A stretch of DNA of 64,000 nt from Patescibacteria group bacterium (GTDB lineage: Bacteria; Patescibacteriota; Microgenomatia; UBA1406; HO2-37-13b). Below, piece by piece: positions 913 to 61,893 of this stretch. The stretch is taken from the NCBI GenBank assembly GCA_035289305.1, contig DATDXN010000026.1, positions 8,731-72,730 of the forward strand. Direction: 5' to 3'. Numbering within the stretch: position 1 is the stretch's first letter; every line of letters begins with the position of its first letter. The position numbers and the translations under genes were made by a program. The notes beneath the pieces were generated by a model. It was not told the origin of the DNA and did no database searches. It saw nothing but the letters and a program-made list of their open reading frames with translations.

Positions 913-921
913 ATCGAGGTA

Positions 922-4207: not shown

Positions 4208-4239
4208 ATTTATTCCAGAATTAGTAAAATTTACTACCA

Positions 4240-4268
4240 ATTGTAGAATAAAATATCACTTTTGTCAA
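4240..4268 (-). promoter_or_regulatory. sigma70-like promoter candidate for the abiEi-abiEii operon
   Basis: The minus strand reads TTGACA (4268-4263), a 17-nt spacer, then TACAAT (4245-4240), about 33 nt upstream of the ATG at 4207. AT-rich genomes produce such hexamers by chance, hence the moderate confidence. Confidence 0.4.
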
Positions 4269-9742: not shown

Positions 9743-9758
9743 AAAACTTCCAGGCTCT

Positions 9759-18033: not shown

Positions 18034-18044
18034 AGCAGCTTATT

Positions 18045-20270: not shown

Positions 20271-20280
20271 ACATCCTTAC

Positions 20281-23435: not shown

Positions 23436-23439
23436 ACTT

Positions 23440-27507: not shown

Positions 27508-27509
27508 AT

Positions 27510-31730: not shown

Positions 31731-31738
31731 TATATGAT

Positions 31739-32952: not shown

Positions 32953-32958
32953 TAAACT

Positions 32959-42409: not shown

Positions 42410-43198
42410 ATGTATCAAATAGATTTTCGAAAAAAGATTTTACGCATAGCAAAAAGGGCGAACTCAAGGCACTGTCATATCGGTTCATGTCTTTCTTGCA
42501 TTGATATACTTATCCAAACATTTTTGCATGAAATGCGTCAAAACGATAAGTTCATTCTCTCAAAAGGACATGCGTCTCTTGCATTATTTGTTATTCTACA
42601 ACATTTGAAAAAAATCTCGGATAAAGATCTTGAAACATATTTGCAGAATGGCACCTATTTTGGTATCCATACGCCATCTTCTTTCCCAGAGACCATCCCA
42701 CTTCCCACCGGAAGTTTAGGACACGGCTTGTCTTTTGCAGCGGGACTCGCATATGGATATAGATTGAAGAAAAATACTCCAACACAAAACGTATATTGTC
42801 TTTTGTCAGATGGCGAATGCAATGAAGGTGCCGTCTGGGAAGCTTCTCTTTTTGCCAGTAGATATAAATTAGATAATCTGATCGTACTTATTGATAAAAA
42901 TAATATTCAAGCATTTGGAAAAACTGAAGAAGTGCTTGGCGATGCCGCCTCAAAAGAAAAGTGGCGCGCTTTTGGTTTTTCCGTTTTTGAATGTAACGGA
43001 CATAGTCTGAAAGATTTGAAGCAAACATTCAAAAAAATCAAGAGGCTGAAAAAACAGCAGCCTCGCGTTATCATATGCAAAACAAAAAGGGCAAAAGGAA
43101 TTTTGTCAATTGAGGACAAAGTCAAATCTAACTATGTCGCAGTCGACGACAAATTGTTTCATGAGTTAAACGTAGAAAAAGAAACATATGAGAAGTAA
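42410..43198 (+). CDS. transketolase, N-terminal (ThDP pyrophosphate-binding) subunit, copy 1
   Basis: HIGSCLSCIDIL, SKGHASLALF, TGSLGHGLSFAAG, and LSDGECNEGAVWEA (the ThDP GDG-type motif). 262 aa, split-type. Confidence 0.85.
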   Translation: MYQIDFRKKILRIAKRANSRHCHIGSCLSCIDILIQTFLHEMRQNDKFILSKGHASLALFVILQHLKKISDKDLETYLQNGTYFGIHTPSSFPETIPLPTGSLGHGLSFAAGLAYGYRLKKNTPTQNVYCLLSDGECNEGAVWEASLFASRYKLDNLIVLIDKNNIQAFGKTEEVLGDAASKEKWRAFGFSVFECNGHSLKDLKQTFKKIKRLKKQQPRVIICKTKRAKGILSIEDKVKSNYVAVDDKLFHELNVEKETYEK

Positions 43199-44105
43199 AT
43201 ACGCTCACGTTATCGGCAAAATTGCTCAAAAGGATAGACGCGTGGTCTTTTTGACCGGAGATTTAGGGTTCAATGCGTTTGAGCAGCTACGCAACAACCT
43301 TAAAGAAAGATTTATCAATGCCGGGGTTGCAGAACACAATATGATCACTGCTGCTTCAGGATTGGCATATAGTGGGTTTAAACCATGGATATACAGCATT
43401 GCGCCATTTGTCACTATTAAAGTATTGGAAGAAATCCGCAATGATGTCTGCGAAGTTTTATCAAATGTAAAAATCGTGGGTCTGGGGGGAGGATATGACT
43501 ACGGCATTGCAGGACCGACCCATCATGCGCTTGAAGATATCGGCGTCTTACTGACTATTCCCCATATGAGAGTTTATGCTCCTGCCTTCTCTGACGACGT
43601 AGAAACAGTAGTTAAAAAAATGCATCGGATCAATTCTCCCGCTTATCTAAGACTCACTAAAGCTGAAAATCATAATTATTCTATACCTCCTTATGCAGCG
43701 TGCAGACACATGGCCAGCGGAAACAAGATAACAATGGTAGTATTGGGATCAATTGCCCATAAAGTCATGTGTGCATACAATGCACTAAGGAAAAACTATC
43801 AACAGGCAATTGATCTATGGATCATATCAGAATTGCCGCTTTCACTTTCTAAAAAGTTAACTACATCATTGCGTAAAACAAGAAAAATTTGCGTAGTTGA
43901 AGAACATGTTAAAAATGGGGGATTGGGTCAACAGTTAAGTCTATTACTCGTCGAGAATAATATCCCCGTTGATCATTTTGTTCATCTGTACGCACGCGGC
44001 CATCTGTCAAAAAAATACGGTGACCGTAATTTTTATCTGAAGGAAACTGGTCTTGATGAAGAAAACATCAGCAAAACAATAAAAAAACTCTATGGACAGT
44101 CGTGA
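43188..44105 (+). CDS. transketolase, C-terminal (pyrimidine-binding) subunit, copy 1
   Basis: FLTGDLGF, FINAGVAEHNMITAASGLA and GPTHHALEDIGVL. Overlaps the N-subunit gene by 11 nt. Confidence 0.85.
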   Translation: MRSKYAHVIGKIAQKDRRVVFLTGDLGFNAFEQLRNNLKERFINAGVAEHNMITAASGLAYSGFKPWIYSIAPFVTIKVLEEIRNDVCEVLSNVKIVGLGGGYDYGIAGPTHHALEDIGVLLTIPHMRVYAPAFSDDVETVVKKMHRINSPAYLRLTKAENHNYSIPPYAACRHMASGNKITMVVLGSIAHKVMCAYNALRKNYQQAIDLWIISELPLSLSKKLTTSLRKTRKICVVEEHVKNGGLGQQLSLLLVENNIPVDHFVHLYARGHLSKKYGDRNFYLKETGLDEENISKTIKKLYGQS

Positions 44106-45045
44106 TAGTATCAAACGACTAAAAGGACCAATTGGCATTTTTGGAGCAGGTGGATTTATCGGAATTAATCTCCTGCAGGCAATTTTCACGGTAAGATCAG
44201 ATGTTATCGGCTTCTCTCGAAATCCAAAACAATCTTGGCGCATCAATTCATGCAAAATACCTCGATCACATTTTGTGATATGTAATCTGCTGGATAATAA
44301 ATCTATTCAATCTGTTATTAAAAAACATAAACCGCAGACCATTTTCAATCTTGGTGCATACGGCGCTTATCCGAAACAGAAAGATATTGAAAAGATATAC
44401 CAGACAAATTTTCTTTCAACTGTTTATCTCATTGAGGTATTGAAAAATCATGGTTTTTCTGTATATATCCATGCCGGATCTCAATCCGAGTACGGACTCA
44501 ATGCTACAGCTCCACATGAGAGAGATGAACTCATTCCAAACAGCCATTACGCTATATCTAAAACAGCAACCCATTACCTTCTCAAGTATTACGGCAGGGT
44601 TGAAAAACTTCCAGTCGCACATCTGCGCTTGTATTCTGTATATGGTCCGTGGGAAGAACCTGACAGACTCATTCCCGTACTTTTGCAAAAGGCAAAAGAA
44701 AAAAAGCTTCCGCATTTTGTGGATGCAGAAATATCGCGCGATTTCATTTTCGTCGAGGACGTGTTGGAAGCAATGATCGTAGTCGCACGACGACTGAAAC
44801 CATCGTATTTCGGTGATACCTTTAATATCGCATCAGGAAAAAAGACCACTATGAAAGAACTTGCTACACTTTCAAAAAAAATATTTGATATTGATCAAAA
44901 TCCAATTTTCGACACTATGAAACAAAGGAACTGGGATGTAAAAAATTGGTACGGTAGTGCTGCAAAAATGGAGAAAGTCTTCAGTTGGAAGGCAAAAACC
45001 AAATTGAAGGACGGACTTCTCAAAACATATGAAAAAATCAGTTGA
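44092..45045 (+). CDS. NAD(P)-dependent epimerase/dehydratase/reductase (extended SDR)
   Basis: IFGAGGFIGINL (GxxGxxG) and YAISKTATHY (YxxxK). Confidence 0.8.
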   Translation: MDSRDSIKRLKGPIGIFGAGGFIGINLLQAIFTVRSDVIGFSRNPKQSWRINSCKIPRSHFVICNLLDNKSIQSVIKKHKPQTIFNLGAYGAYPKQKDIEKIYQTNFLSTVYLIEVLKNHGFSVYIHAGSQSEYGLNATAPHERDELIPNSHYAISKTATHYLLKYYGRVEKLPVAHLRLYSVYGPWEEPDRLIPVLLQKAKEKKLPHFVDAEISRDFIFVEDVLEAMIVVARRLKPSYFGDTFNIASGKKTTMKELATLSKKIFDIDQNPIFDTMKQRNWDVKNWYGSAAKMEKVFSWKAKTKLKDGLLKTYEKIS

Positions 45046-45727
45046 CTTCTCTATAGTCTTCCCTGTCATGAATCAAGCTGATCATATTGAACGGGTTATT
45101 CGTGCACATCATGGTATTCTCACAAGACACAAGATTTCATTTGAACTCATCGCTATGGTAAACGGATCACGCGACACAAGCTATCAAGTTTGCAAAAAGA
45201 TTGCCAAAAAACTCGCTTCAGTATCGACATATGAATTAAAGGAGTCCGGTTATGGACTCGGGGTACTCCATGGTCTGAAACAGACAACAGGAAAGTATCT
45301 ATGCTATGCAAATTCAGCTCGTGTGCACAGCGATGAATTGCTCCGCTGCATAAAATTCTTTTTGAAAGATCCAAACACTGTTTTATATGCTGCGCGAAAA
45401 AAAAGAGATGTATGGTATCGAAGATTCAGCTCTCTTATTTATAACGGATTTTGTACATTGTTTATGGGTATTTCTTCATCTGATATTAATGGAACTCCAA
45501 AAATATTCAAAAGAAGCATATATAAAAAACTTAATCTTCAATTCACCAATAGTATGATCGATGTTGAATTTTTTGATAAAATAAAACGTTTCGCTATTCC
45601 CGTCAAGGAATTTCCTATTTATAGGAATACTCGCCATGGGGGAGTATCCACATCAAGATTTTCCACTATATTCAGACTAATAAAAGAAGTAATCCACTAT
45701 TGGTATATGACAAGAATACGGCATTAA
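45029..45727 (+). CDS. glycosyltransferase family 2, short soluble form
   Basis: FSIVFPVMNQADHIERV GT-A start. 232 aa with no C-terminal TM helices. Confidence 0.7.
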   Translation: MKKSVDFSIVFPVMNQADHIERVIRAHHGILTRHKISFELIAMVNGSRDTSYQVCKKIAKKLASVSTYELKESGYGLGVLHGLKQTTGKYLCYANSARVHSDELLRCIKFFLKDPNTVLYAARKKRDVWYRRFSSLIYNGFCTLFMGISSSDINGTPKIFKRSIYKKLNLQFTNSMIDVEFFDKIKRFAIPVKEFPIYRNTRHGGVSTSRFSTIFRLIKEVIHYWYMTRIRH

Positions 45728-46968
45728 GCTTTTTTCAAAAACTTTTCGAGAATCTTCTGCATGTATTTTATCATTTGATCCGTAATACCAGGAAATACAC
45801 CAAGCCAAAATGCGTTATTCATTACAATGTCAGCATTTTTTATTTTGTCCGCAGTTTTGTACGTAATATCTTGATATGCAGGGTGTTTAAGGAGGTTGCC
45901 AGAGAAAATATTACGCGTCCCAATTTTGTTTTTTTCCAAATACTCTGTTAATTCATTGCGGCTAAATGGAGCATCTTGACGGACAATTACTGGAAACCCA
46001 AACCAACATGGATCTTCTTTTGGGAATGTCTTCATGAGTATGAAAAATTTTTCGTATTTTTTGAAAAAAACATACAGTTTTTTGTAATTTTCTTTTCTTT
46101 TTTGGATGAAGATGGGAAGTTTCTTAAGTTGCGCCAGTCCAATTGCTGCTTGAAAATCAGTAAGTTTGAGGTTGTAGCCAATTTGTGAATAGGTATATTT
46201 ATGGTCATACCCATGGGGCAGATCTCCCAGCTTCCAACCAAATCGTTTTCCACAGGTGTTATCTCGACCAGTGTCACACCAGCAATCGCGACCCCAGTCG
46301 CGAAACTGACGAATAGAGCGATGGATAAGGGAATTATTGGTAATAACAGCACCTCCCTCTCCCATGGTGATCTGATGGGCCGGGTAAAAACTAAAAGTCG
46401 CAATATGTCCAAATGTACCAACTAATTTTCCATCATATCGAGATCCCAGTGCGTCACAGCAGTCCTCAATAACCCACAAGTTATATTTTTTTGCGATTTG
46501 TATAATTTTGTCCAAATTGTACGGATTGCCAAGCGTATGGGCAACCATGATGAGTTTTGTTTTTTTGGTGATTGCCGCCTCTATTTTGGAAACATCTATA
46601 TTGAGTGTCTCAAGCTCTGCATCAACAAACACAGGAGTCAACCCATATAAGATACCGGGATTGACGGTCGTGGGAAAAGCAACCGCTGTAGTAATATACT
46701 CATCACCCCTCCTTAGTCTTTTTTCTCCAAAAACCCGGGAGGTGAGGCTGGCAAACGCCACAAGGTTTGCCGATGAACCGGAGTTCACCAACGATATATA
46801 CTTTACTCCCAGAAACTTTTTGAAATCGCTTTCAAATTGTTTGCCAAACTCACCCTCTGTCCACCAACCATCACGTGCAACTTTTATGGCGTTATCAATT
46901 TCCTCTTGATCAAATACTTTACCTGATACGGGAATGTAGGTTGTACCTGGGATAAAATCTTTTTTCAT
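45724..46968 (-). CDS. rfbH: PMP-dependent NDP-4-keto-6-deoxyhexose 3-dehydrase, E1 type (RfbH/DdhC/AscC-like)
   Basis: DegT/DnrJ/EryC1 fold. The position of the PLP-lysine is occupied by His (SFYPAHQITMGEGG, H198). Cys171-x57-Cys229-x1-Cys231-x7-Cys239, counted by hand, equals the E1 [2Fe-2S] motif C-X57-C-X1-C-X7-C. Confidence 0.8.
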   Translation of the reverse strand: MKKDFIPGTTYIPVSGKVFDQEEIDNAIKVARDGWWTEGEFGKQFESDFKKFLGVKYISLVNSGSSANLVAFASLTSRVFGEKRLRRGDEYITTAVAFPTTVNPGILYGLTPVFVDAELETLNIDVSKIEAAITKKTKLIMVAHTLGNPYNLDKIIQIAKKYNLWVIEDCCDALGSRYDGKLVGTFGHIATFSFYPAHQITMGEGGAVITNNSLIHRSIRQFRDWGRDCWCDTGRDNTCGKRFGWKLGDLPHGYDHKYTYSQIGYNLKLTDFQAAIGLAQLKKLPIFIQKRKENYKKLYVFFKKYEKFFILMKTFPKEDPCWFGFPVIVRQDAPFSRNELTEYLEKNKIGTRNIFSGNLLKHPAYQDITYKTADKIKNADIVMNNAFWLGVFPGITDQMIKYMQKILEKFLKKA

Positions 46969-47897
46969 TTATTGAGAATTTTCTCTATTATATATTTTGG
47001 TCGTTGCTTGATCTCTTCAAAAATAATTTTTAAATATTGGGCGATAATAGTAAAACAAATGAGTTGAACTGCACCGAGGAAAAAACTTGTGAGTAGCAAT
47101 GTCTGAAAACCTTTGGGAACATGGGGATTTAAAAAGTATGAAATTGTATAACCAACAATGGCGATAATGGTTACCGTAATAGTCAAAATAGCAAGTAAAG
47201 AAATTAACTCCAGCGGCATGTACGAAAAAGAGAAAACAGCGAATATTGCCCATTTTACATTGTCAAGAAAAGAATTTGTTGAAAAACCTCTATATCTCTC
47301 TTTCCGTTCATAGGGCACACCTATACTGCGAAAACCTACCCATGCTCGCAGTCCACGTATATATCTATTTCTTTCCTGTAGTTGCTGAAAAACTGCAACT
47401 ACTTTTTTATCAAGAAGCGAAAAATCCCCGGCATCAAGCGGGATATTCACGTAAGATAGTTTTTTAAATAACCTATAAAAGAGTTTGTAAGATATTCTTC
47501 TTACCAAACTTTCGTTTCTTTTCACACGTACGCCGTAGACGATATCATATCCTTTTTCCCATTGTTTGATGAGGTCGGGGATTTTTTCTGGCGGGTCCTG
47601 CAAATCTCCATCGATGAGAACAGTCGCATGACCTGAAGCTAAATCAATCCCGGCAGTATACGCTCCTTGGGATTTATAAAAATTTCTTGAGAGAAATATG
47701 ACTTTTACTCTTATATCTTTTTTTGCAAGGTTTTCAAAAATACTATCAGACCGATCAGTACTACCGTTGTTGACGAAAATTATCTCATACTCATAGGATG
47801 ATTTGCGAAAAACAGCAATAAGCCTTTTGTACATTGGCATGATGTTGTTTTCCTCATTGTAAGAAGGTATGATAACAGATATCTTTTTTTTATCCAT
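46965..47897 (-). CDS. polyprenyl-phosphate glycosyltransferase, GT2 (GtrB/ArnC/DPM1-like), copy 1
   Basis: SVIIPSYNEENNI, VLIDGDLQDPPEKI, and two C-terminal TM helices followed by FEEIKQRPKYII. Confidence 0.8.
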   Translation of the reverse strand: MDKKKISVIIPSYNEENNIMPMYKRLIAVFRKSSYEYEIIFVNNGSTDRSDSIFENLAKKDIRVKVIFLSRNFYKSQGAYTAGIDLASGHATVLIDGDLQDPPEKIPDLIKQWEKGYDIVYGVRVKRNESLVRRISYKLFYRLFKKLSYVNIPLDAGDFSLLDKKVVAVFQQLQERNRYIRGLRAWVGFRSIGVPYERKERYRGFSTNSFLDNVKWAIFAVFSFSYMPLELISLLAILTITVTIIAIVGYTISYFLNPHVPKGFQTLLLTSFFLGAVQLICFTIIAQYLKIIFEEIKQRPKYIIEKILNK

Positions 47898-48825
47898 GAG
47901 GTTGTTTTTTTACAGCGGATACGATTCTATCAACAATAGCGTCAACTGACAATCCTAATTTCCCTCTCAAATAGTCTTGCGAACCAATATGCGTAATAAA
48001 TTCATCGTTGGTACCGAGCGAGAGAACTTTTTCGCAAAAGCCACCTGCTCGCGACAATGTTTCACACACAGCTCCTCCAAGACCTCCTATTATACTATGC
48101 TCCTCAACAGTTACCACTGCTTTTTTTCCTTGACTTACAGTGCGTACCAATTCTTCATCAAGTGGTTTGAGCGTATGCATATTGACCACTGTTGAGGAAA
48201 CGCCCAAACGCCGCAATTTTTCCTCAACAGCCAAAACAACATGCAATATCGGTCCTGATGAGAAAATCACTACATCATGCCCTTTGCGCAAGATTATTCC
48301 TTTGCCGATATGAAGAGGGAAGGGGGTCTTAAATATCTGTTTTTCATCTTTTTTGCCAATGCGCATATATACTGGCCCGCGACGGGCCAAAACTTCCTTA
48401 ACCATCAAAGAACCCTCAAGAGGATCGGCAGGGGCGACAATCGCCATGCGCGGGAGAAGACGCATAATACCCACATCCTCGAGTGCAAAATGAGTGCTGC
48501 CGAGAAGCCCGTACGATAAACCGCTTCCAACTCCCAAAATTTTAACATTGAGATTGTGATAACAGATGTCATCTCGTATTTGCTCAAAACAACGCATCGT
48601 GACAAAAGGAATAATGGAGTAGACAAACACCTTTTTCCCTGTCATAGCAAGCCCTGCAGCAATTCCCATCATGTTTTGTTCGGCCACACCGACATTAATA
48701 AACCTCCGTGGAAAATCTTTTTCTATCCCCTCGAGCACAGAATATCCTAAATCCCCCGTCAAAAAATATATCTTATCATTAGTTTTCATTAACTCGTGTA
48801 TTTTTCCAATTATTGCACCTCTCAT
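47890..48825 (-). CDS. transketolase, C-terminal subunit, copy 2
   Basis: FLTGDLGYS, FINVGVAEQNMMGIAAGLA and GSTHFALEDVGIM. Confidence 0.85.
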   Translation of the reverse strand: MRGAIIGKIHELMKTNDKIYFLTGDLGYSVLEGIEKDFPRRFINVGVAEQNMMGIAAGLAMTGKKVFVYSIIPFVTMRCFEQIRDDICYHNLNVKILGVGSGLSYGLLGSTHFALEDVGIMRLLPRMAIVAPADPLEGSLMVKEVLARRGPVYMRIGKKDEKQIFKTPFPLHIGKGIILRKGHDVVIFSSGPILHVVLAVEEKLRRLGVSSTVVNMHTLKPLDEELVRTVSQGKKAVVTVEEHSIIGGLGGAVCETLSRAGGFCEKVLSLGTNDEFITHIGSQDYLRGKLGLSVDAIVDRIVSAVKKQPHG

Positions 48826-48839: not shown

Positions 48840-49676
48840 CTACAACGTACGCAAAATTTCTTTTTGGACTGACGCATCAATTGACTTATAATGAGACTCA
48901 AATTTTCCTTCAAAAAAAGGTATTCCTTTGCCCTTTATTGTATGCGCGAGTATAAAGTGAGGCTTTTGCACAGGATTTTTTTTTACCTTTTCAAATACAG
49001 CAATAAGTTCCCCGTGATTATGACCATCTACTTCATAGGTATTCCAGCCAAAAGATGCGAGTTTTTTTGTTACGGGCTCAAGATCAATCACCTCTTTTAC
49101 TTCGCCATACCCCTGCATTTTGTTGGAGTCAACAATCACCACGAGATTTGACAAGAAGTGATGTGCTGCAAACATAAAAGCTTCCCAGTTTGAACCTTCG
49201 TTCAAATCGCCGTCTGATATAAGTACATATATGATACGGTCTATGCCATCATTGCGTGCGGCTATCGCATGTCCTACGCCAACTGGCAAACCATGGCCCA
49301 GAGACCCCGTCGATAGCTCAACACCCGGAACAACCGTAGTCACATGCTCTGAAAGCATCCCGCCGTTTCGATCATATGATTGCAAGATTTTCTTATCAAA
49401 AAAGCCCCTTTCAGCTAATGTCGCATAAAGGGCTGCACCGGCATGTCCTTTTGAAAGAATAAAAATGTCTCGCTTCCTGTCATCGGCATGATGAGAATCA
49501 ATAGCCAGAATGTCAAAATACAAAACTACCAAAATATCAACGATAGAAAGCGAACAACCTATGTGATGAGACTCGTGGGGAACAAGCATTTCGATGATGT
49601 TTCTCCTCACTGTGAGCGCGTTTTTTTTCAAAGCCTCGATTTTTGAAGAGTCTGTTGAAATAAAATGTTTCCTCAT
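48840..49676 (-). CDS. transketolase, N-terminal subunit, copy 2
   Basis: HIGCSLSIVDIL, SKGHAGAALY, TGSLGHGLPVGVG and ISDGDLNEGSNWEA. The start at ATG 49676 (MRKHFIS...) is preferred over 49709. Confidence 0.85.
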   Translation of the reverse strand: MRKHFISTDSSKIEALKKNALTVRRNIIEMLVPHESHHIGCSLSIVDILVVLYFDILAIDSHHADDRKRDIFILSKGHAGAALYATLAERGFFDKKILQSYDRNGGMLSEHVTTVVPGVELSTGSLGHGLPVGVGHAIAARNDGIDRIIYVLISDGDLNEGSNWEAFMFAAHHFLSNLVVIVDSNKMQGYGEVKEVIDLEPVTKKLASFGWNTYEVDGHNHGELIAVFEKVKKNPVQKPHFILAHTIKGKGIPFFEGKFESHYKSIDASVQKEILRTL

Positions 49677-49726
49677 AGTAAAAAACAAGTAATAGTGTAC
49701 AATATACATAATCTAAAGTCCACTTT

Positions 49727-50671
49727 ATGCATAATCCCGGTAAAAAAATCTCAATCGTCATTCCCATTTATAATGAGGAAAAAGTCATTCCCGAACTCAT
49801 AAAAGAACTGGCGCGGTTTGCGGCCAAACTCCCTCTGTATCAATGTGAATTTATTCTCGTTGAAAATGGATCGCACGATCTTTCGCTGCAATTGCTAGAC
49901 AAATACGCACGCCGCGACACTCGTCTCAAGATCGTTCAGCTGTCGAGAAATTTCGGCTGCGATGGCGGCATTGTTGCCGGCATGAGTTACGCGACAGGCG
50001 ATGCATGCGTGATCATGATGGCAGATCTTCAGGAACCAATATCGTTGATTAAAGAATTTATTGCCACATGGGAAAAAGGATATGATATCGTCTACGGCAT
50101 TGTCCAAAAACGACAAGGAAAATTCCTGCGCAATGTAGCATCGAAATTTTTTTACAAACTGATCAACCTTCTTGCTCCCACGAAATTTCCCGAAAACGCG
50201 AGTGATTTTCGACTCATTGATAAAAAAGTCTATCAGACTATCAATCATATGCCCGAGCAAAATAAATATTTACGAGGACTTATCATGTGGACCGGATTTC
50301 GTCACATCGGGATCCCATTTGACCGAAAAAAGCGCTTTGCAGGCGAATCAAAAGCCGATCTGAAGACGGTCATATATGTAGCCTTGAACGGTATTTTCTC
50401 ATTCTCTTATCTTCCTTTGCGGTTAGTCTCGTATCTTGGTCTTGTTTTGACTATTGTCTCTTTTGCGTTGGGTCTTTTTTATTTGTTGCTTTTCTTTATC
50501 CATGGACGAGTGGCGCCGGGAGTTGTTACTATTATTTTAATTACGTTGTTTTTATTCGGGGTTCTTTTTTTCATTCTCGGTATCATAAGCGAATATATCG
50601 CGCGCATTTATGAAGAGGTGAAACAAAGACCAAACTTTATCGTCAAAAAAACCGTGAATATAAATCCTTAA
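49727..50671 (+). CDS. polyprenyl-phosphate glycosyltransferase, GT2 (GtrB/ArnC-like), copy 2
   Basis: SIVIPIYNEEKVI, IMMADLQEPISLI, and two C-terminal TM helices followed by YEEVKQRPNFIV. Confidence 0.8.
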   Translation: MHNPGKKISIVIPIYNEEKVIPELIKELARFAAKLPLYQCEFILVENGSHDLSLQLLDKYARRDTRLKIVQLSRNFGCDGGIVAGMSYATGDACVIMMADLQEPISLIKEFIATWEKGYDIVYGIVQKRQGKFLRNVASKFFYKLINLLAPTKFPENASDFRLIDKKVYQTINHMPEQNKYLRGLIMWTGFRHIGIPFDRKKRFAGESKADLKTVIYVALNGIFSFSYLPLRLVSYLGLVLTIVSFALGLFYLLLFFIHGRVAPGVVTIILITLFLFGVLFFILGIISEYIARIYEEVKQRPNFIVKKTVNINP

Positions 50672-53189: not shown

Positions 53190-54980
53190 TCATATTGAAG
53201 CTTCTTTTTTAGTTTTGATCGGAGGAATAATCATATTTCTGCGAAATTCATCGCGGGGTAAAAGTGGGAAAAGATCTTCAATGGGACTGCCAAATGAAAG
53301 TTTGGGAATGATTTTTTGGTCATCATTAAGGTATACATCACAAAGCACCGGTCCTCTGTGCGAAAGAACTTCTTTTATTTTTTTTGACAAATGAGTATGT
53401 GAACGAATAGAAACAGATTTTATTCCATATGCTTGAGCAATCTTTATAAAATCAGGACAAGAGTAACCCTTTCCCGTCGCCTCAAATCTTGAATCTAAAT
53501 ACATTTCCTGGAACTGTTTAATAATGCCATATCCATGATTATTAAGGATAAAAATTTTTACCGGGAGTTTATGGTAAACCAATGTTTGAAGCTCTTGGAT
53601 GTTTATTTGAAAACCCCCATCTCCATTTATACAAATTATTTCCTTTTTCCCTCGAGCAAAAGATGCACCAATTGCTGCTGGAAAGGAATATCCCATTGGA
53701 GAATTACCAAAGGCAGAAAAAAGCCTTTGTCCCTGTTTTAATTCAAACCCCTGCATAATCCATGTTAGAGTTGCGCCAGTATCGGGAATAACGATTGCAT
53801 CATTCTTTAATTCTTTCGATAAAACTTGAGCAAATACATAAGGATTTACATATTTTTTTTCTTCATAATATTGGAGAAGAACCGTTGGATATTTTTCTCT
53901 CCACGTTGCACAGTGTTTAATCCATTCAACAGTACGTGATTTATTTATCGCAGGAAATTCTTTAATGAATGCTCGTAGGAATTCTTTTGCATCCGCTTGT
54001 ATTGATACTGCAGGAGTTAAACCTCTGCGTTTATCAAGCTCGGTCTGGTCGATATCAATCATAACTATTTTAGCGGCCCGCGCGTACGTCTCTGGTTTCC
54101 CCCCTGTTTGACGTGTATCAAGTCGTGATCCGATACTAATCAGAAGATCACAATTCTGCACCGCAAAATTCGCTCCTCTTTCCCCATACACACCATGTGT
54201 ACCAATAAACAAAGAATGATTGTGAGCAAAAAGATCATAACCACTCCATGAATTGACCACCGGAATGCCTGTCAGCTTCACCATCTGATGAATTTCGTTA
54301 ACCGCACCAGCCAGTCTGATTCCACCACCGGCTAAGATAAGGGGACGTTTTGATTGTGCAATAAGCGTTAGTACCTTTTCTATTTTTGTTTTAAGTATTA
54401 ATCCAGTATCTTTATATTGTTTTTCTTTTGGGGGGATAAATTTTTTAAGTGTTGAACTTTTTATTTCTGTTTTTTGAAGATCCAAGGGGATATCAATGAG
54501 AACCGGTCCGGGGCGTCCAGTTTTTGCAATATAAACAGCCTTTTCTAGTAGAAAACGAGTATCTTCTGCACGGTCAATCTTAACAGCAAATTTCGTAATT
54601 GGGCGAACTATATCAACAATTTCTGTTTCCTGAAAACCAACTTGCCGAACCTTTGAGATACTTTTTTGTTCGTATGTATTGACCTGTCCGGTAATGAAAA
54701 GCGTTGGAATTGAATCAAACCACGCACAACAGATGCCGGTAATTAAATTTGTTGCACCGGGACCAGATGTTGTCATTGCCACTCCAAGTCCTGGACCAAC
54801 ACGAGCATAGCTTTCTGCCATCATTGCTCCTGCCTGTTCGTGAGCAACACAGATATATTCAATATCATGTCTTTTTGAAAATGCATCCACTGCAAATGCA
54901 ATAGCACCTCCGACCATTAAGAAAACATGCTTTACTTTTTGCAAAACAAGATAATCAAGAATATAATCTGCTACTTTCAT
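53190..54980 (-). CDS. ThDP-dependent enzyme, acetolactate synthase large-subunit-like (copy 1)
   Basis: 596 aa with TTSGPGATNL, a central domain, and the ThDP motif GDGGFQINIQEL...ILNNHGYG. The C-terminal tail is PIEDLFPLLPRDEFRRNMIIPP. No small regulatory subunit or other ilv genes are nearby. Confidence 0.8.
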   Translation of the reverse strand: MKVADYILDYLVLQKVKHVFLMVGGAIAFAVDAFSKRHDIEYICVAHEQAGAMMAESYARVGPGLGVAMTTSGPGATNLITGICCAWFDSIPTLFITGQVNTYEQKSISKVRQVGFQETEIVDIVRPITKFAVKIDRAEDTRFLLEKAVYIAKTGRPGPVLIDIPLDLQKTEIKSSTLKKFIPPKEKQYKDTGLILKTKIEKVLTLIAQSKRPLILAGGGIRLAGAVNEIHQMVKLTGIPVVNSWSGYDLFAHNHSLFIGTHGVYGERGANFAVQNCDLLISIGSRLDTRQTGGKPETYARAAKIVMIDIDQTELDKRRGLTPAVSIQADAKEFLRAFIKEFPAINKSRTVEWIKHCATWREKYPTVLLQYYEEKKYVNPYVFAQVLSKELKNDAIVIPDTGATLTWIMQGFELKQGQRLFSAFGNSPMGYSFPAAIGASFARGKKEIICINGDGGFQINIQELQTLVYHKLPVKIFILNNHGYGIIKQFQEMYLDSRFEATGKGYSCPDFIKIAQAYGIKSVSIRSHTHLSKKIKEVLSHRGPVLCDVYLNDDQKIIPKLSFGSPIEDLFPLLPRDEFRRNMIIPPIKTKKEASI

Positions 54981-55038: not shown

Positions 55039-55986
55039 CTACTTTTTACTCTTTCCGATAATTTCATCGACAATATACACAGGTCGGGATTTCGTCTCCT
55101 CAACAATGACCTGAATATATTTACCTATGACACTAATAGCCAGAAGCTGAATCCCGCCAAAAAAAACAATAGCCAACATTAGGGGAATTGACGCATTTAT
55201 TGGATTTCCTATCACTAAAACGGTGAAAAGATACATAAGAAAGAAAGCAAAAGAAAGAAAAACGAGGATAAATCCTCCATAAATCATGGTATCCAAAACT
55301 AGATATGAAAATCCAAAAAGTCCACGCTCGGCATGTTTAATGTAATCAATAAAACTATAAGAACTTTCTCCTTTGACTCTCTCTCGTCTCTCGTAAACAA
55401 TATAATCTGTTTTAAAACCAATCCATGCCCTCAATCCCCTAAAAAAACGATATTTCTCAGGCAATGCTTTAAGCGCATTTAAAGACTTTCTATCTAATAG
55501 ACATAGTCCAGAAGCGTTAGTCGGGATATTGATATTGGAAATTTTTTTAAAAACGACATAAAATAATTTTCTCATCACGAACATCAAAAGATTATCTTGG
55601 ATCTTTGGGTGAAGACCAACTACTATATTGTTCCCTTTTTCCCACTTTTCAATAAATTGGGAAATGAGTTCCGGGGGTTCTTGAAAATCAGCAGCTATCC
55701 CTATTACCGCCTCACCAGTTGAATAATCTAAACCGGCCTGAAGAGATGCTTCTGGCCCAAAATTTCTCGAAAGAAATACGCCTGCCACTCGTTTATCTCT
55801 ATGAATAATCTTTTTTATTACATCTTTTGTTCTATCACTGCTTCCGTTATCAGCAAAAACAAACTCGAAGTTATAGTGTTTATTACTGTCGGCAATGATT
55901 TTTAGAGCAAGATACATAGGTTCAACATTTTCTTCTTCATTAAAGCACGGCACCGTGATAGATAGTAATTTTTTAGTGGTGGACAT
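55039..55986 (-). CDS. polyprenyl-phosphate glycosyltransferase, GT2 (GtrB/ArnC-like), copy 3
   Basis: SITVPCFNEEENV, GIAADFQEPPELI, and two C-terminal TM helices followed by VEETKSRPVYIV. Confidence 0.8.
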   Translation of the reverse strand: MSTTKKLLSITVPCFNEEENVEPMYLALKIIADSNKHYNFEFVFADNGSSDRTKDVIKKIIHRDKRVAGVFLSRNFGPEASLQAGLDYSTGEAVIGIAADFQEPPELISQFIEKWEKGNNIVVGLHPKIQDNLLMFVMRKLFYVVFKKISNINIPTNASGLCLLDRKSLNALKALPEKYRFFRGLRAWIGFKTDYIVYERRERVKGESSYSFIDYIKHAERGLFGFSYLVLDTMIYGGFILVFLSFAFFLMYLFTVLVIGNPINASIPLMLAIVFFGGIQLLAISVIGKYIQVIVEETKSRPVYIVDEIIGKSKK

Positions 55987-57124
55987 CTTTTTTTAAAGAT
56001 ATAAACGCATAACAAACTGTATCATATATAAATTGTCCATAATGACGAAGATAAAAAGAATAGTTTGGACCATATTTCTTAATAAGAAGTGGGATTCTCC
56101 AAAGATCTGTTGATTTATGGTAAATGCAGATAGCTAATGTGGGGAGATGTGCCGTGATAGTTTTTTTTGCTCCCCGTAAAACATCTTCTTCTGCTCCCTC
56201 AATATCCAACTTAATGAGAGTTGTCCTCTTTTTGCGGAAGAATTTATCCAAAGATATCGCTTTGATTGTTGAAACTGACTCTGTTGTAATTCGAGATCCC
56301 AAAGTAGCATCGTTTGTAAACGCAAGGTATGTTTCTTTTTTCGCCAGCGCATAAGGATAAATCTTAATTCTTTTATCTTTCCATTTCTTTATATTTCGTT
56401 TTAATTTTTTAAATTGATATCGATCTGGTTCAAAAGCATAAATCGCAACGTAATTATCGCTTGTTACTTTCTTAAATTTTTTAACGGTATCACCGTCATA
56501 CGCGCCACCATCAATAAGAATTTCTGTTTGATTTAAATTGATCAACTTCTTATCAAAATATTCCTTTTCTTGCGGTTGTTTTATTTTTTTTATACATTTT
56601 CTATCTAAAAATAATCTATATTTGATCAATTCCAAAAAAGTCTTTCTTGACATTTTATCTTTAAACAAGTCGAAACAGGCTAAAATTTTATCTTTATCCC
56701 GGAATATATCATCGAGTGAGTTTTGCCAATAGGGATTAGTGAATTTTCTCGGATACAGAGTGCAAAAAAACGAATGTGGCCATATTCGTGCAAATCCGAT
56801 TTTTCTTAATTGATTTAATATTTCCTCATCATAAATTGAGGTTATAATAATCTGTATATCTTTGGGAAAACGCATTAACTCTGAAATGGAAATAATATCT
56901 TTGCCATCTAATTTTTTACCACTTTTTGCTTGATTGTTATCAACAAAAGCCAAAACGTTTATTTTATTTTTTTTGCATAAATGAAGATAAATCTTGCCCA
57001 TCTGCGCGGCTCCGAATAAAATCACTGGTTTTTTAAAGTGAAAAAAACCAAAATTACTTTGCAAAAGATCAGCATAATAATTCCTTGGTTTATGAAGTAA
57101 TATTTCTAGATTGTTTTTTTCCAC
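55973..57124 (-). CDS. FkbM family methyltransferase with N-terminal Rossmann-like domain
   Basis: LIDGGAYDGDT and LIKLDIEGAEEDVL are FkbM-family blocks. The N-terminus has ILFGAAQMGKIYLHL...AFVDNN. Confidence 0.75.
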   Translation of the reverse strand: MEKNNLEILLHKPRNYYADLLQSNFGFFHFKKPVILFGAAQMGKIYLHLCKKNKINVLAFVDNNQAKSGKKLDGKDIISISELMRFPKDIQIIITSIYDEEILNQLRKIGFARIWPHSFFCTLYPRKFTNPYWQNSLDDIFRDKDKILACFDLFKDKMSRKTFLELIKYRLFLDRKCIKKIKQPQEKEYFDKKLINLNQTEILIDGGAYDGDTVKKFKKVTSDNYVAIYAFEPDRYQFKKLKRNIKKWKDKRIKIYPYALAKKETYLAFTNDATLGSRITTESVSTIKAISLDKFFRKKRTTLIKLDIEGAEEDVLRGAKKTITAHLPTLAICIYHKSTDLWRIPLLIKKYGPNYSFYLRHYGQFIYDTVCYAFISLKKDVHH

Positions 57125-57126
57125 GA

Positions 57127-58176
57127 CTAAAAAGTAATAATTTTATTTTTTAATTTTTTTGATTTTATTTCATTGATAATCTCATCTTTAAATTTGAATG
57201 AGGATATAAGTATGGGTTGGGGATAAGAAACTAATTCGTTTGGAGATATAACCTTAATATTTTCAAAATTTTTCTCTATTATTTTGGCATTTCTGTCAAC
57301 AAGTATAAAGATTTTTTTTCGAAGACTTGATGTATACAAAAGTCGTTTCGTCAATGCTCCCGCACCCCAAACGATAGTTTTCTTCGGTAGTTTATCAACT
57401 TTTTTCTGAATTTTATTAAGCTTTTGATTTGATAATTTTATGTATTTTCTGACAGAATTTTTCAAGCTGCCCGTTTTTTTCCAGACAGAGTAGATAACTA
57501 TATGATTAGCCTCAAGATAAATGCAGGTAAAGTCTACGAGAAGTATCTCTAAAAATCGAGGAGAAAAAAAATTTATATGTTCGGGAGAAAATTCATAAAA
57601 CGGCTCTTCAACTTCCTCATAAAATCTGCTTGCGTTTGGGACGCTTATAAAGAATTTTCCTTCTCTAGCAAGTAAAGTAGTTATTTTTTCTATAGATCTT
57701 TTCAACTCTGATAGATGTTCAAGTACTGTGGCTAGAATAATAAAATCAAACTTTTCTCTAGATTTAAACGAGTCAATCGTCTCTGTTTTAACGATAACAT
57801 TATATTGTTTCCTAGCAACTATTCTACACTCTGGCGCCGGATCAACTCCCATAAGATTTTTGTAACCTTTCTTTTTCAAGAGATATAAAAGATGACCTGT
57901 AGAACAACCCACGTCAAGAATCTTATCTGTATAGCGTACATGTTTGGCAATTATTTCAACAGATGTATCGTGAAATTTTTGATCTCTGGTGTATTCATAT
58001 TTGGATAAGTCTTTGTAGTATTGATTGTAATAAGACTGGGGGTTTGCGTTTCTTACAAAAACAAAGCCACAGTTATCACAAGAAACAATTTTGTTACGTA
58101 GAATTTTGGAATATGATTGAACAAATAAAGTCTCGCTGGAGCTACTTGTACAAATTGGGCATTTGTTTGTATTCAT
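57127..58176 (-). CDS. SAM-dependent methyltransferase with the sugar C-methyltransferase (TylC3/NovU-like) three-part architecture
   Basis: N-terminal Zn ribbon CPIC...CDNC, motif I ILDVGCSTGHLL, and a C-terminal Rossmann-like segment IVWGAGALTKRLLY...VDRNAKIIEKNFENIKVISPNEL that resembles the C-methyltransferase C-terminal domain. Confidence 0.55.
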   Translation of the reverse strand: MNTNKCPICTSSSSETLFVQSYSKILRNKIVSCDNCGFVFVRNANPQSYYNQYYKDLSKYEYTRDQKFHDTSVEIIAKHVRYTDKILDVGCSTGHLLYLLKKKGYKNLMGVDPAPECRIVARKQYNVIVKTETIDSFKSREKFDFIILATVLEHLSELKRSIEKITTLLAREGKFFISVPNASRFYEEVEEPFYEFSPEHINFFSPRFLEILLVDFTCIYLEANHIVIYSVWKKTGSLKNSVRKYIKLSNQKLNKIQKKVDKLPKKTIVWGAGALTKRLLYTSSLRKKIFILVDRNAKIIEKNFENIKVISPNELVSYPQPILISSFKFKDEIINEIKSKKLKNKIITF

Positions 58177-59045
58177 TTTGTTAATTTGATGGCAGAAATA
58201 TTCCGTCTATACCAATTATAAAGTGAGCGAAGCGATACGTCAAAAGGCGTGAATCTGAAATGTCCTAACTCTTTCATAAGCTGAATATTGTTACAGGTGT
58301 ATTCATTATTTAACCCAGAGTTTTTGACGATAATTTGACTTTTATGCGTAGCAATATCATTTATTTTTTTAGCGATAGACAAAAGGTTTATTTTTCTGCC
58401 TGTTCCTATGTTATAAAATTTATGTTTTATGGCACGATGTATAAAATGTTCAATAATTTTTATAAAATCATTGATATATACATAATCAAAGTAAACGTTT
58501 TGATTGATCTTTATTGGCTGTCCAAGTAAATTCAAACAGATCGCATTTGATATAAACCGATAATGGTAATCCTCGTATTTACCAAACATTCCAAATATCC
58601 GCAAAGAAACAATATTATCCATATTTTCTATATATTTTGAACACAAATATTTAAAAAAACCGTAGTCGTCTTGAGGGACTCTTTTATCGAAGTCTTTTTC
58701 TTTAACTTTTTTGATCGGCTTCGTTTTATCATATTCGGCTCCTGAACCAAAATAGATTATTTTTTTAACGTGTTTCCTGTTTTTGATAATGTTAAAAAAA
58801 ATTCTTAAGTTATTTTTTAAAGAATCTTTTTCATATTCTTCAGTTCTACTTCCTCCAACTACTGCTGCATGTATGACAAGATCGATTGTGTTGTGGAATT
58901 TAAAATATGATAGAGTAGCAACGTCATCAGCTAAATCAAGTTCAGCATGTTTCGGTGCAAGAATATGGTATTTGTTCCCAAGTTGTTCGATGATGTTTTT
59001 TCCAATAAATCCACTTCCACCTGTCAGCAAAATCTTTTTTTTCAT
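58173..59045 (-). CDS. NAD(P)-dependent epimerase/reductase (extended SDR)
   Basis: ILLTGGSGFIGKNI and YLCSK (YxxxK). Overlaps both neighbours by 4 nt. Confidence 0.8.
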   Translation of the reverse strand: MKKKILLTGGSGFIGKNIIEQLGNKYHILAPKHAELDLADDVATLSYFKFHNTIDLVIHAAVVGGSRTEEYEKDSLKNNLRIFFNIIKNRKHVKKIIYFGSGAEYDKTKPIKKVKEKDFDKRVPQDDYGFFKYLCSKYIENMDNIVSLRIFGMFGKYEDYHYRFISNAICLNLLGQPIKINQNVYFDYVYINDFIKIIEHFIHRAIKHKFYNIGTGRKINLLSIAKKINDIATHKSQIIVKNSGLNNEYTCNNIQLMKELGHFRFTPFDVSLRSLYNWYRRNISAIKLTK

Positions 59046-60865
59046 ACACCATCTGATAAAGGAATAATCATATTCTCCTCTAATTCTTTTCGACTCAAAA
59101 ATGGAGCCATATCTTCAAGCGGTCGGGAAACAAACGATCCGTCTGGTAATTTCATAGATGCAGCCTTGGGCCAAAAGCCCTGATCTGGCGAAACCATAAT
59201 TTCACATAAAATTAGACCTCTACGTGAGAGAACCTTTTTTATTTTTCGTTCCATCTCTGAATGATTGCTAATTCTTTCAGTTGCAATACCATAAGCTTTC
59301 GCAATCTTTATTATATTGGGCCAAGAAACACCACTATCAGTACTTGTCGCAACGAACCTTCCTTCGAATAAACCCTTTTGAGTTAGGCGAATTGATACAT
59401 ACCCGGCATTATTATAAATAAATAATTTTATTGGAAGTTTATTATGGACAACTGTCTGTAGTTCTTGTAGGTTAAGTTGAATACTCCCATCACCTTCCAA
59501 ACAAATAGTTTTCTTTTTACCACGAGCAAAACACATCCCTATTGCCGCAGGCAATCCATATCCCATCGGCGCCGAACCAGAACTCGTCAGAATCCTTGTT
59601 CCTTGCGGAAAATCTAATGCCTGGTACGTACATATTGAAGCGGTAGCATTGGCGAGAGCTAAACAATCTGTCGGTTTTATGTATCTTGACAATACTTCGA
59701 TAAAACAGTATGGGTTGACATATTTTTTTTCCTCCCAGTATTCCGGTAAAACAACTGGATATTTCTTTTTCCATTCCTGAACTCGTTTCAACCAACCATC
59801 AATTTGAAAATTCGTGGATTTTCTCTTTATCTGATTAATCGTTTCAATGATAAAATCTTTAGCGTCATAATTGATCTTCTGGTCTATTTTGAGAGTGTTT
59901 TTATTCATCTCCTCTTTATCAATATCAACCATGATTTTATAGGCAGCTCTCGCAAAAGAAGAAAAATTGAAACCTATCATTCTGATATTTAATCTCGAGC
60001 CTATGATGAGTAATAAGTCTGAATTTTGGAGGGTAAAATTAGCCGCTCGCTGCCCTATGGTCCCTGGTTTTCCAGCTGAATAATGATTTTTCGGCGAGAC
60101 AATATCCATACCGGCAAAACCGGTGAGAACGGGAATCTTTAAGATTTTAATCAATGTAAGAAACTCATTTACTACTCCAGCGTATCTGACCCCATTTCCA
60201 ACAAAAACCACCGGTCGTTTAGCTGATTTCAGCTTATCAATGACATGGGAGACAAGTTGTTTTAATTTTCCTTTGTCTGTTTCATACGGTGGTTTTATTT
60301 CGGAAGGATCAAATTTCCTCAATTTTTTTTCATCAATGTATGAACCTTGTATGTCAAGCGGGATGTCAATCCAAACTGGACTTTGTCTACCGGTAGTTGC
60401 CAAGTAAACTGCTTTTTCCAAGTGGTAGCGTATATCGTATGGATCCATCACCATTACTGCATATTTAGTGATGGGTTTTATAATATCAATGATATTTATT
60501 TCTTGATCTCCCATCTGACGAAGTTTTTTTCCGGCCCCTATGGTCTCTCTTCTGATTTGTCCTGAAATAATTAACATCGGTACGGAGTCTAGCCAAGCAC
60601 CCATAACTCCGGTCACGGCGTTTGTGCCGCCCGGCCCTGTCGTGACAATACAGGCTCCGATTTTGCCAGAGGTCCTTGCATAACCTTCCGCAGCTATCGC
60701 ACAGGCTTGTTCATGATGATTACAGACAAATTGCAGTCTCTTAGCTTTTCCTATAGAATCAATCAAGTGTATACATCCCCCCCCAGATATGAGAAAAACA
60801 TCCGTCACGCCAAGTCTTTCAATAAATTCAATAACGTAATCGGAAACTTTAATTTTATTCTTCAT
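59042..60865 (-). CDS. ThDP-dependent enzyme, acetolactate synthase large-subunit-like (copy 2)
   Basis: TTGPGGTNAV, GDGSIQLNLQEL...IYNNAGYV, and the tail PLEDMAPFLSRKELEENMIIPL shared with copy 1. The start at ATG 60865 (MKNKIKVSDYV...) is preferred over 60919. Confidence 0.8.
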   Translation of the reverse strand: MKNKIKVSDYVIEFIERLGVTDVFLISGGGCIHLIDSIGKAKRLQFVCNHHEQACAIAAEGYARTSGKIGACIVTTGPGGTNAVTGVMGAWLDSVPMLIISGQIRRETIGAGKKLRQMGDQEINIIDIIKPITKYAVMVMDPYDIRYHLEKAVYLATTGRQSPVWIDIPLDIQGSYIDEKKLRKFDPSEIKPPYETDKGKLKQLVSHVIDKLKSAKRPVVFVGNGVRYAGVVNEFLTLIKILKIPVLTGFAGMDIVSPKNHYSAGKPGTIGQRAANFTLQNSDLLLIIGSRLNIRMIGFNFSSFARAAYKIMVDIDKEEMNKNTLKIDQKINYDAKDFIIETINQIKRKSTNFQIDGWLKRVQEWKKKYPVVLPEYWEEKKYVNPYCFIEVLSRYIKPTDCLALANATASICTYQALDFPQGTRILTSSGSAPMGYGLPAAIGMCFARGKKKTICLEGDGSIQLNLQELQTVVHNKLPIKLFIYNNAGYVSIRLTQKGLFEGRFVATSTDSGVSWPNIIKIAKAYGIATERISNHSEMERKIKKVLSRRGLILCEIMVSPDQGFWPKAASMKLPDGSFVSRPLEDMAPFLSRKELEENMIIPLSDGV

Positions 60866-60920
60866 AATATGATTGAGGAAAATAATGCAAATACTATAAT
60901 ATAAAAGTAGAAAAATCAAT

Positions 60921-61859: not shown

Positions 61860-61893
61860 ATATTTATACTTGATTTTTTTAGCAAGATTTACT

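Follow-up and report, generated by a model that had tools for sequence, protein, structure and literature searches.

An RfbH/E1-type sugar 3-dehydrase with no adjacent E3 reductase gene, in a Patescibacteria glycan locus rich in thiamine diphosphate-dependent carboligase genes

From where does an E1-type sugar 3-dehydrase receive its electrons if no E3 reductase gene lies beside it, and which pathway would use its product? These questions are raised by a gene, here called rfbH, in a 64,000-nucleotide stretch from a Patescibacteria group bacterium (assembly GCA_035289305.1, contig DATDXN010000026.1, positions 8,731 to 72,730; GC content 36.5%). This whole stretch is referred to as the window, and its features are collected in Table 1. 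The product of rfbH resembles E1, also known as AscC, DdhC or RfbH, which in the textbook case forms a pair with the reductase E3 (RfbI, AscD). Taking all data together, we consider it quite probable that rfbH encodes an RfbH/E1-type 3-dehydrase acting on a cytidine diphosphate (CDP) sugar, that it is served by general reductases, and that its product enters the synthesis of branched 3,6-dideoxyhexoses.

The protein could be placed with a large margin over the family cutoff. The NCBIfam equivalog NF011936 (“lipopolysaccharide biosynthesis protein RfbH”) gave 646.3 bits (cutoff 423) for residues 2-413, which cover profile positions 27-438 of 440, while the second-best NCBIfam family, PseC, reached 215 bits. 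Pfam placed the protein in the DegT_DnrJ_EryC1 (PF01041) fold family. The top PDB matches in phmmer were the E1 entries of Yersinia pseudotuberculosis, 3bcx (3bcx_A, 490 bits) and 3bb8 (486 bits). Residues 3-410 aligned with E1 residues 25-432 with zero gaps and 51% identity (208/408), and the 22 N-terminal residues of E1 are missing from our protein. Because of this gap-free identity to a solved structure, we regard fold and motif as settled. Judged from its sequence, the open reading frame (ORF) clearly belongs to the iron-sulfur sugar 3-deoxygenases of the known RfbH/E1 family.

Translation of the ORF gives cysteines at positions 170, 171, 229, 231, 239 and 321, and a histidine at position 198 within YPAHQ. 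An earlier reading of the sequence, the original prediction, had reported a C-X57-C-X1-C-X7-C motif and a histidine in place of the Schiff-base lysine of DegT-type aminotransferases. Spacing and coordinates agreed exactly (codons of Cys171, 46456-46458; of His198, 46375-46377; of Cys239, 46252-46254). With an offset of +22, Cys171, Cys229, Cys231 and Cys239 fall on C193, C251, C253 and C261 of E1, which we take to be its [2Fe-2S] ligands (numbering of Agnihotri et al. 2004, cited in PMC8987622). His198 falls on H220, and the H220K mutant entry 3bb8 has a lysine in this column. The lysine that follows an FYPxK-type segment in DegT aminotransferases is not present in our protein, where the histidine occupies its position. 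When ColD, the guanosine diphosphate (GDP)-4-keto-6-deoxy-D-mannose 3-dehydratase (PDB 2gms), was aligned as well, it had no cysteines at these columns.

To see how far the pattern extends, we can turn to a MAFFT alignment of 92 sequences, namely our protein, E1 and 90 DegT-family sequences from related loci. All four cysteines and the histidine, with an identical span of 69 residues, were found in 84 of these 90. Column 198 holds histidine in 86/92 sequences and lysine only in the remaining six, which are second copies at the same loci; these have alanine at column 171 and lack the other motif cysteines. Cys170 does not belong to the motif, as a cysteine is found there in only 43/92 sequences. 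A rough estimate from composition (1.4% Cys) gives about 1e-5 per protein for four cysteines at fixed spacing by chance. Since the pattern is conserved in the family alignment and absent from the second copies with lysine, we ascribe it to homology and not to chance. E1 and SpnQ, the deoxythymidine diphosphate (dTDP)-4-keto-2,6-dideoxy-D-glucose 3-dehydratase of Saccharopolyspora spinosa, have in common a four-cysteine [2Fe-2S] motif around their cofactor, pyridoxamine 5′-phosphate (PMP), as well as a histidine in place of the catalytic lysine (PMC8987622).

Next to the dehydrase, the reductase was searched for. As reference query for E3 we used Salmonella RfbI (L086:5055-6029, plus strand; plasmid record NZ_CP022016.1), a BenC/Fre-like protein whose gene is annotated in a sister record as CDP-6-deoxy-delta-3,4-glucoseen reductase. 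In NZ_CP022016.1, rfbI is intact in the DNA between rfbC and rfbF, yet it is missing from the PLSDB gene table, and gaps in this table are therefore no proof of gene absence. The ORFs of the window tile it with almost no intergenic space, and 51 of the 52 with at least 150 amino acids were scanned with NCBIfam and/or Pfam profiles. None of these 51 proteins matched Fer2, FAD_binding_6 or NAD_binding_1. The remaining ORF (575-1117, plus strand), which overlaps scanned genes on the opposite strand, had no match in the E3 searches. A regular-expression screen for E3 (CX4CX2C...C together with GGxGxxP and RxYS) gave zero matches in the ORFs of all loci; this screen was not relied on alone, and the search was repeated with RfbI. 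In tblastn against the window and all fetched loci, RfbI returned only its own source locus. With phmmer --max, in which all stop-to-stop ORFs of 50 amino acids or more from the window and flanking contigs were compared with RfbI, the best E was 1.4. Between them, the two programs found nothing in the window, in L001-L005 or in the loci of the 80 relatives described below. The original prediction, that no E3-type reductase gene is present in the window, was thus borne out by every one of these searches.

The search was also widened beyond the window with metagenome contigs. On the right, L001 is identical to the window over an overlap of 12,152 nt, and on the left, L002 is tied to it by its gene order, which is the same, and by a LepA protein that is identical. 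The left flank of ~9.6 kb carries housekeeping genes (FolD, GyrA, GyrB, pyrophosphatase, L31 and RF-1), and the right flank of ~9.1 kb carries the genes of an RfbF-like protein, EamA transporters, NiFe hydrogenase subunits and others. No E3-type reductase was found in this contiguous sequence of ~83 kb. As a separate observation, the large subunit of a NiFe(Se) hydrogenase is encoded ~6 kb past the glycan locus together with a fragment of an Oxidored_q6 small subunit (L001:17254-18886, minus strand), and no FNR-like gamma subunit was detected near these right-flank genes. An FAD-dependent oxidoreductase of the PRK07208 type (35820-37256) was considered as a substitute for E3 and rejected; it lacks an Fe-S domain and was seen in just three related loci.

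We then compared the relatives of the gene. When one genome was scanned for each GTDB species, the 80 closest loci had 52-76% identity and came from many bacterial phyla and some archaea. The closest RfbH sequences, with 67-76% identity, come from metagenome-assembled genomes (MAGs) of Roizmanbacteria and Shapirobacteria, both Patescibacteria, and from low-GC MAGs labelled “uncultured Gammaproteobacteria”. In none of the 80 loci was an RfbI homologue found within 10 kb of rfbH. In a separate run against a plasmid collection, tblastn of RfbI recovered E3-like genes with 34-40% identity, and on a Sphingomonas plasmid such a gene lies 2 kb from rfbH. When all ORFs of the related loci were clustered, ferredoxins, flavodoxins and flavin reductases were not among the recurrent families. 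The families that did recur were short-chain dehydrogenases/reductases (SDRs), RfbF, YerE-like proteins, family 2 glycosyltransferases (GT2s) including GtrB-like ones, methyltransferases, GT4 glycosyltransferases, NeuB-like proteins, transketolase subunits, aldolase and aldehyde dehydrogenase, and, assigned by eye, GtrA-like and RmlC-like proteins.

The missing E3 neighbour is the usual state among the relatives and no strong anomaly, because none of the 80 closest loci has one and SpnQ is a precedent for independence from E3. SpnQ lacks a dedicated E3 and is served by general pairs, either ferredoxin with ferredoxin reductase or flavodoxin with flavodoxin reductase (PMC8987622). By analogy with SpnQ, a general ferredoxin or flavodoxin system is the most likely source of electrons for our dehydrase as well. 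The alternative, that an RfbI/AscD orthologue is encoded elsewhere in the genome and forms a classical E1/E3 pair in trans, appears unlikely to us, although the contiguous sequence examined covers only ~83 kb and FNR-type genes resembling E3 are common, with 236 plasmid records. Salmonella and the Sphingomonas plasmid keep an E3 gene near rfbH, whereas the 80 closest loci have none within 10 kb of it. In addition, the closest relatives are small-genome Patescibacteria MAGs, and SpnQ shows that general reductases suffice (PMC8987622).

Which nucleotide sugar would the dehydrase use? The original prediction had noted a 4,6-dehydratase-like SDR at the window's right edge, which we also found, and had recognised no cytidylyltransferase of the RfbF type. 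The latter was an edge effect, because the RfbF-like gene lies just outside the window, past base 64000 and directly upstream of the truncated RfbG-like SDR gene; both genes are carried complete by L001. The RfbF-like protein scored 264 bits over the full length of TIGR02623 (cutoff 300), with the next family at 78 bits. The RfbG-like SDR scored 202 bits on TIGR02622 (cutoff 278) and 173 bits on the model for dTDP-glucose dehydratase. Identity to the Salmonella proteins is 39% for RfbF and 31% for RfbG, and among the fetched loci, 61 hold a homologue of RfbF and 66 one of RfbG. Both genes share the locus with rfbH, and their products stay below the equivalog cutoffs of the families from the classical CDP-3,6-dideoxyhexose pathway (rfbF-rfbG-rfbH-rfbI) that they match best. 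Based on gene families and locus membership, the substrate of RfbH is most likely CDP-4-keto-6-deoxy-D-glucose, and CDP is likely the carrier.

A SpnQ/UrdQ-type dTDP-sugar 3-dehydratase, which would lead from a dTDP-4-keto-2,6-dideoxyhexose to a 2,3,6-trideoxy sugar, is improbable in our view. SpnQ does share the cysteine motif, the catalytic histidine and the lack of a dedicated E3 with our protein (PMC8987622), our protein is 48% identical to actinomycete genes annotated as rfbH on Streptomyces plasmids compared to 51% to Salmonella RfbH, and the SDR scores on the dTDP and CDP models are close. However, SpnQ belongs to a polyketide glycoside pathway, where its substrate is a dTDP-2,6-dideoxy sugar, whereas the context of our gene is RfbF-like. 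Neither an RmlA-type thymidylyltransferase nor a Nudix-type 2,3-dehydratase was matched in the scanned ORFs of the window. The sole hexose-1-phosphate nucleotidylyltransferase found in the locus is the RfbF-like one, the protein encoded at 32305-32952 being MobA/IspD-like. The presence of RfbF homologues in the 61 loci and the documented use of a CDP-sugar by YerE-like enzymes (PMC9306805) also speak against dTDP.

Most improbable is that the protein, with no reductase at hand, acts mainly as a C-4 aminotransferase, as SpnQ does when reductase is absent and pyridoxal 5′-phosphate (PLP) and glutamate are supplied, or as a hydrolytic dehydrase that regenerates PMP from glutamate like ColD, which performs 3-deoxygenation independently of redox and shares the DegT fold and the histidine (PMC8987622): the four cysteines are strictly conserved in our protein and the 84 histidine-bearing sequences, which argues for selection on electron transfer; ColD, which needs neither Fe-S cluster nor reductase, scored 205 bits and has gaps where our protein has the motif; E1 and ColD showed no transferase activity under comparable conditions (PMC8987622); and genuine DegT paralogues with lysine accompany rfbH in several loci. 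In line with this, NCBIfam and Pfam scans of the window ORFs detected no Gmd equivalog that would mark a GDP-mannose context.

The genes around rfbH gave the first indications for the fate of the product. The original prediction had connected two acetolactate synthase (ALS)-like genes nearby with YerE, and both have their best PDB match in 8rph, which is JanthE, a YerE-like enzyme (PMC12188165). For the gene at 53190-54980, 8rph (406 bits) is followed by 5ahk (373 bits) and plant acetohydroxyacid synthases (AHAS, ~285 bits), and for the gene at 59042-60919, 8rph reaches 448 bits versus 251 for the next match, 5ahk. YerE-like enzymes, which depend on thiamine diphosphate (ThDP), add acyl branches to CDP-4-keto-3,6-dideoxy-D-glucose, the product of E1 (PMC9306805, PMC12247030). 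The SDR encoded next to the second of these genes may, going by its position only, stand in for a YerF-like side-chain reductase (PMC9306805). At the gene level, a predicted carboligase and an adjacent putative reductase are thus present within a cluster that holds rfbF-, rfbG- and rfbH-like genes. This resembles the clusters of the yersiniose and erwiniose type (YerE/YerF, ErwE/ErwF/ErwI/ErwJ, JanthE). Among the 77 loci holding the gene family, YerE-like genes are found in 35, split transketolase pairs in nine, and either of the two in 43.

Our locus also differs from these clusters. The erwiniose cluster combines a YerE-like enzyme with an aldolase and an acetylating aldehyde dehydrogenase (ErwE/ErwI/ErwJ; PMC9306805). 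The same pattern was observed in L006-L008, the closest relatives, which come from Patescibacteria-like MAGs, and where a cassette of YerE-like, 4-hydroxy-2-oxovalerate aldolase and acetylating acetaldehyde dehydrogenase genes lies beside GtrB-like and rfbH genes. The window has no such aldolase and dehydrogenase pair; its place is taken by a NeuB-like synthase of divergent sequence and by the two pairs of split transketolase subunits. In 10 of the 11 loci that have a NeuB-like gene, it is accompanied by a YerE-like gene. One could speculate that the NeuB-like synthase makes 3-deoxy-2-keto acid donors for the ThDP enzymes, replacing the aldolase/aldehyde dehydrogenase pair of L006-L008. Unlike the yersiniose- and erwiniose-type clusters, the target locus, known here from its genes, pairs the sugar genes with GtrB-like GT2s.

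While the ALS-like genes had been seen correctly in the original prediction, the split transketolase pairs and the GtrB-like transferases adjoining rfbH had been overlooked. On the minus strand the genes follow each other in the order transketolase N subunit, transketolase C subunit, GtrB-like transferase and rfbH, which is the last. The stop codon of the GtrB-like gene overlaps the rfbH start as ATGA, and we consider the two genes coupled because of this overlap. Split transketolase pairs flank rfbH on both sides; in the PDB, the N subunit at 48840-49709 best matched the N-terminal component of a split-chain transketolase (6yak, 196 bits). In contrast to known E1/RfbH systems, our locus has no E3 (RfbI/AscD) in cis, rfbH is ~16 kb away from the rfbF/rfbG-like genes, and its partners are not a paratose or abequose synthase gene but a split transketolase pair in the same orientation and the GtrB-like gene that overlaps its start.

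The nine loci with a split transketolase pair are L012, L015, L020, L024, L065, L070, L074, L075 and L076. In several phyla the genes are ordered RfbF, SDR, RfbH, an optional lysine-type DegT, and the transketolase N and C subunits, and the order GtrB-like then RfbH recurs in the closest relatives L006-L008. No characterised role of a transketolase on CDP-deoxysugars was found in the literature; nearest to it is the hydroxyacetyl transfer in miharamycin and amipurimycin, which is proposed only (PMC12247030). A consensus scan for promoters and terminators was uninformative, as terminator-like sites occurred at the level of shuffled sequence and promoter-like sites only modestly above it. No tRNA genes were found in the window.

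From these observations the following pathway can be proposed. The RfbF-like cytidylyltransferase, together with the 4,6-dehydratase-like SDR, would supply CDP-4-keto-6-deoxy-D-glucose. By analogy with the chemistry of E1, the dehydrase would bind PMP and not PLP, and His198 would act as acid/base in the place of the Schiff-base lysine. The PMP-ketimine of the nucleoside diphosphate (NDP)-4-keto-6-deoxyhexose would then be dehydrated to a 3,4-glucoseen intermediate. To this intermediate the [2Fe-2S] cluster, held by Cys171, Cys229, Cys231 and Cys239, would pass two single electrons, giving the NDP-4-keto-3,6-dideoxyhexose (mechanism and cofactors of E1 and SpnQ are reviewed in PMC8987622). The donor would be a general system based on ferredoxin or flavodoxin; an E3 encoded at another place in the genome is less likely. 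Gene families and synteny suggest that the product would be passed on to the two YerE-like enzymes, and possibly to the two split transketolases, to give 4-C-branched 3,6-dideoxyhexoses, which may subsequently be reduced or methylated. The GtrB-like GT2s would load these sugars on polyprenyl phosphate, and polytopic membrane proteins would transfer them.

Several points weigh against this pathway. The CDP carrier is no more than likely, because both the RfbF-like and the RfbG-like proteins stay below their equivalog cutoffs, and the RfbG-like SDR scores nearly as well on the dTDP-glucose model (173 vs 202 bits). The rfbF/rfbG-like genes, ~16 kb from rfbH, belong to a different transcription unit. 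The RfbH protein is about equally near to the actinomycete and Salmonella RfbH proteins, and its sequence alone therefore cannot fix the substrate. Furthermore, no reductant for the dehydrase turned up in the searches, and the use of the E1 product by the transketolases is a tentative proposal. A more ambitious version, in which one E1 product (CDP-4-keto-3,6-dideoxyglucose) feeds four ThDP carboligases (two YerE-like and two split transketolases), each apparently paired with a polyprenyl-phosphate GT2, with about ten polytopic GT-C-like membrane proteins and a donor other than E3, so that the locus is a modular factory for several new C-branched 3,6-dideoxy sugars of the cell surface, is put forward here as a tentative and rather doubtful idea.

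Table 1. Features of the window and its right border (ORF positions are those of the window; evidence as obtained in this analysis)
Feature	Position	Strand	Evidence
Second split transketolase pair: N subunit 42410-43198, C subunit 43188-44105	42410..44105	+	Pfam and NCBIfam
Extended SDR, NDP-sugar epimerase/dehydratase/reductase family	44092..45045	+	Pfam Epimerase, GDP_Man_Dehyd; no NCBIfam equivalog reached
Short GT2 glycosyltransferase, convergent with rfbH, 3′ ends overlapping by 4 nt	45029..45727	+	Pfam Glycos_transf_2
rfbH/E1-type PMP- and [2Fe-2S]-dependent NDP-4-keto-6-deoxyhexose 3-dehydrase (predicted), 414 aa	45724..46968	-	NF011936, Pfam, E1 alignment
C-X57-C-X1-C-X7-C cluster-binding motif, Cys171 codon to Cys239 codon	46252..46458	-	translation and E1 alignment
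His198 codon, in place of DegT aminotransferase Schiff-base Lys	46375..46377	-	translation and E1 alignment
GtrB/PgfS/ArnC-like GT2, polyprenyl-phosphate glycosyltransferase type, with C-terminal predicted transmembrane (TM) segments	46965..47897	-	NF047588 223 bits (cutoff 500), Pfam Glycos_transf_2
Split transketolase C-terminal (pyrimidine-binding and C) subunit	47890..48825	-	Pfam Transket_pyr, Transketolase_C; NCBIfam transketolase/DXS below cutoff
Split transketolase N-terminal (ThDP-binding) subunit	48840..49709	-	Pfam Transketolase_N; PDB 6yak
Second GtrB/PgfS-like GT2	49727..50671	+	family scans, TM estimate
YerE-like ThDP carboligase (ALS-like)	53190..54980	-	PDB 8rph 406 bits; below AHAS equivalog cutoff
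Third GtrB/PgfS-like GT2	55039..55986	-	family scan, TM estimate
Two methyltransferases: FkbM-family 55973-57124, class I S-adenosylmethionine-dependent 57127-58176	55973..58176	-	family matches
SDR directly downstream of the YerE-like gene 59042-60919, overlapping its 3′ end	58173..59045	-	family matches
YerE-like ThDP carboligase (ALS-like)	59042..60919	-	PDB 8rph 448 bits; below AHAS equivalog cutoff
Weak haloacid dehalogenase (HAD)-like phosphatase 60921-61859 and divergent NeuB-like phosphoenolpyruvate-dependent synthase 61849-63096	60921..63096	+	NeuB 114 bits (cutoff 400), Pfam NeuB
CDP-glucose 4,6-dehydratase-like SDR, cut by window edge, full gene 317 aa	63099..64000	-	TIGR02622 best family
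RfbF-like glucose-1-phosphate cytidylyltransferase-like protein, 259 aa, outside the window	~64049-64828 (L001:12201-12980)	-	TIGR02623 full length

The wider glycan locus contains about a dozen polytopic membrane ORFs (15805-29759, minus; 39251-41506, plus; 37261-39252, minus; 34276-35823, plus; 4324-6054, minus; 9639-11027, plus). Seven polytopic ORFs are consecutive (742, 741, 765, 313, 750, 604 and 749 amino acids), and for each of these, whose C-terminal part is soluble, a crude Kyte-Doolittle count gives ~7-13 hydrophobic segments. The polytopic ORFs are nearly without Pfam matches, except for one weak DUF7657 match and weak PMT_2 and F5/8 type C matches on a 515-amino-acid ORF. Among the fetched loci their homologues were found only in L006 and L007 (29-50% identity), and homologues of the ~750-amino-acid membrane paralogues were found only in MAGs of Patescibacteria and the low-GC MAGs labelled “uncultured Gammaproteobacteria”. 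The polytopic proteins resemble an expanded family of GT-C-like transferases, for which the GtrB-like enzymes would supply polyprenyl-phosphate sugars as substrates.

Other genes of the locus were recorded as well. Between a GtrB-like GT2 gene and a YerE-like gene lies a gene for an 828-amino-acid protein (50690-53176, minus strand) that carries signatures of M6/reprolysin-like metalloproteases and, at its C terminus, a dockerin type I domain. At 2694-4240 (minus strand) an AbiEii-family nucleotidyltransferase toxin (287 amino acids) is encoded with an overlapping upstream ORF of 228 amino acids, which is likely its AbiEi-type partner. The pair adjoins lepA where the glycan locus is bordered on the left, and homologues of both are found in L010. 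The region 29812-34270 (plus strand) starts with two soluble ORFs (328 and 311 amino acids) that had no match in any library, followed by genes for a HAD-IB phosphatase, the MobA/IspD-like nucleotidyltransferase, a methyltransferase and an Asp/cysteate racemase-like protein. This region may be a separate module for decoration with an activated alcohol or amino acid; four of its members (31739-34270) have homologues together in L008.

On its own the dehydrase gene adds little, and any standard annotation pipeline would name it RfbH. Its context, with split transketolases and multiple YerE-like enzymes around a single E1 gene, is more interesting than the gene. Because E3 is absent next to rfbH in all 80 closest loci, the pairing of E1 with E3 known from textbooks may be special to the Proteobacteria, and the use of general reductases as by SpnQ may be the common mode. 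If our dehydrase is indeed reduced by a donor other than E3, this may be a prevalent, unstudied mode outside the Proteobacteria. The links of rfbH to split transketolases and YerE-like genes point to a large uncharacterised set of C-branched deoxysugars, among others in small-genome Patescibacteria that devote ~55 kb to glycan machinery.

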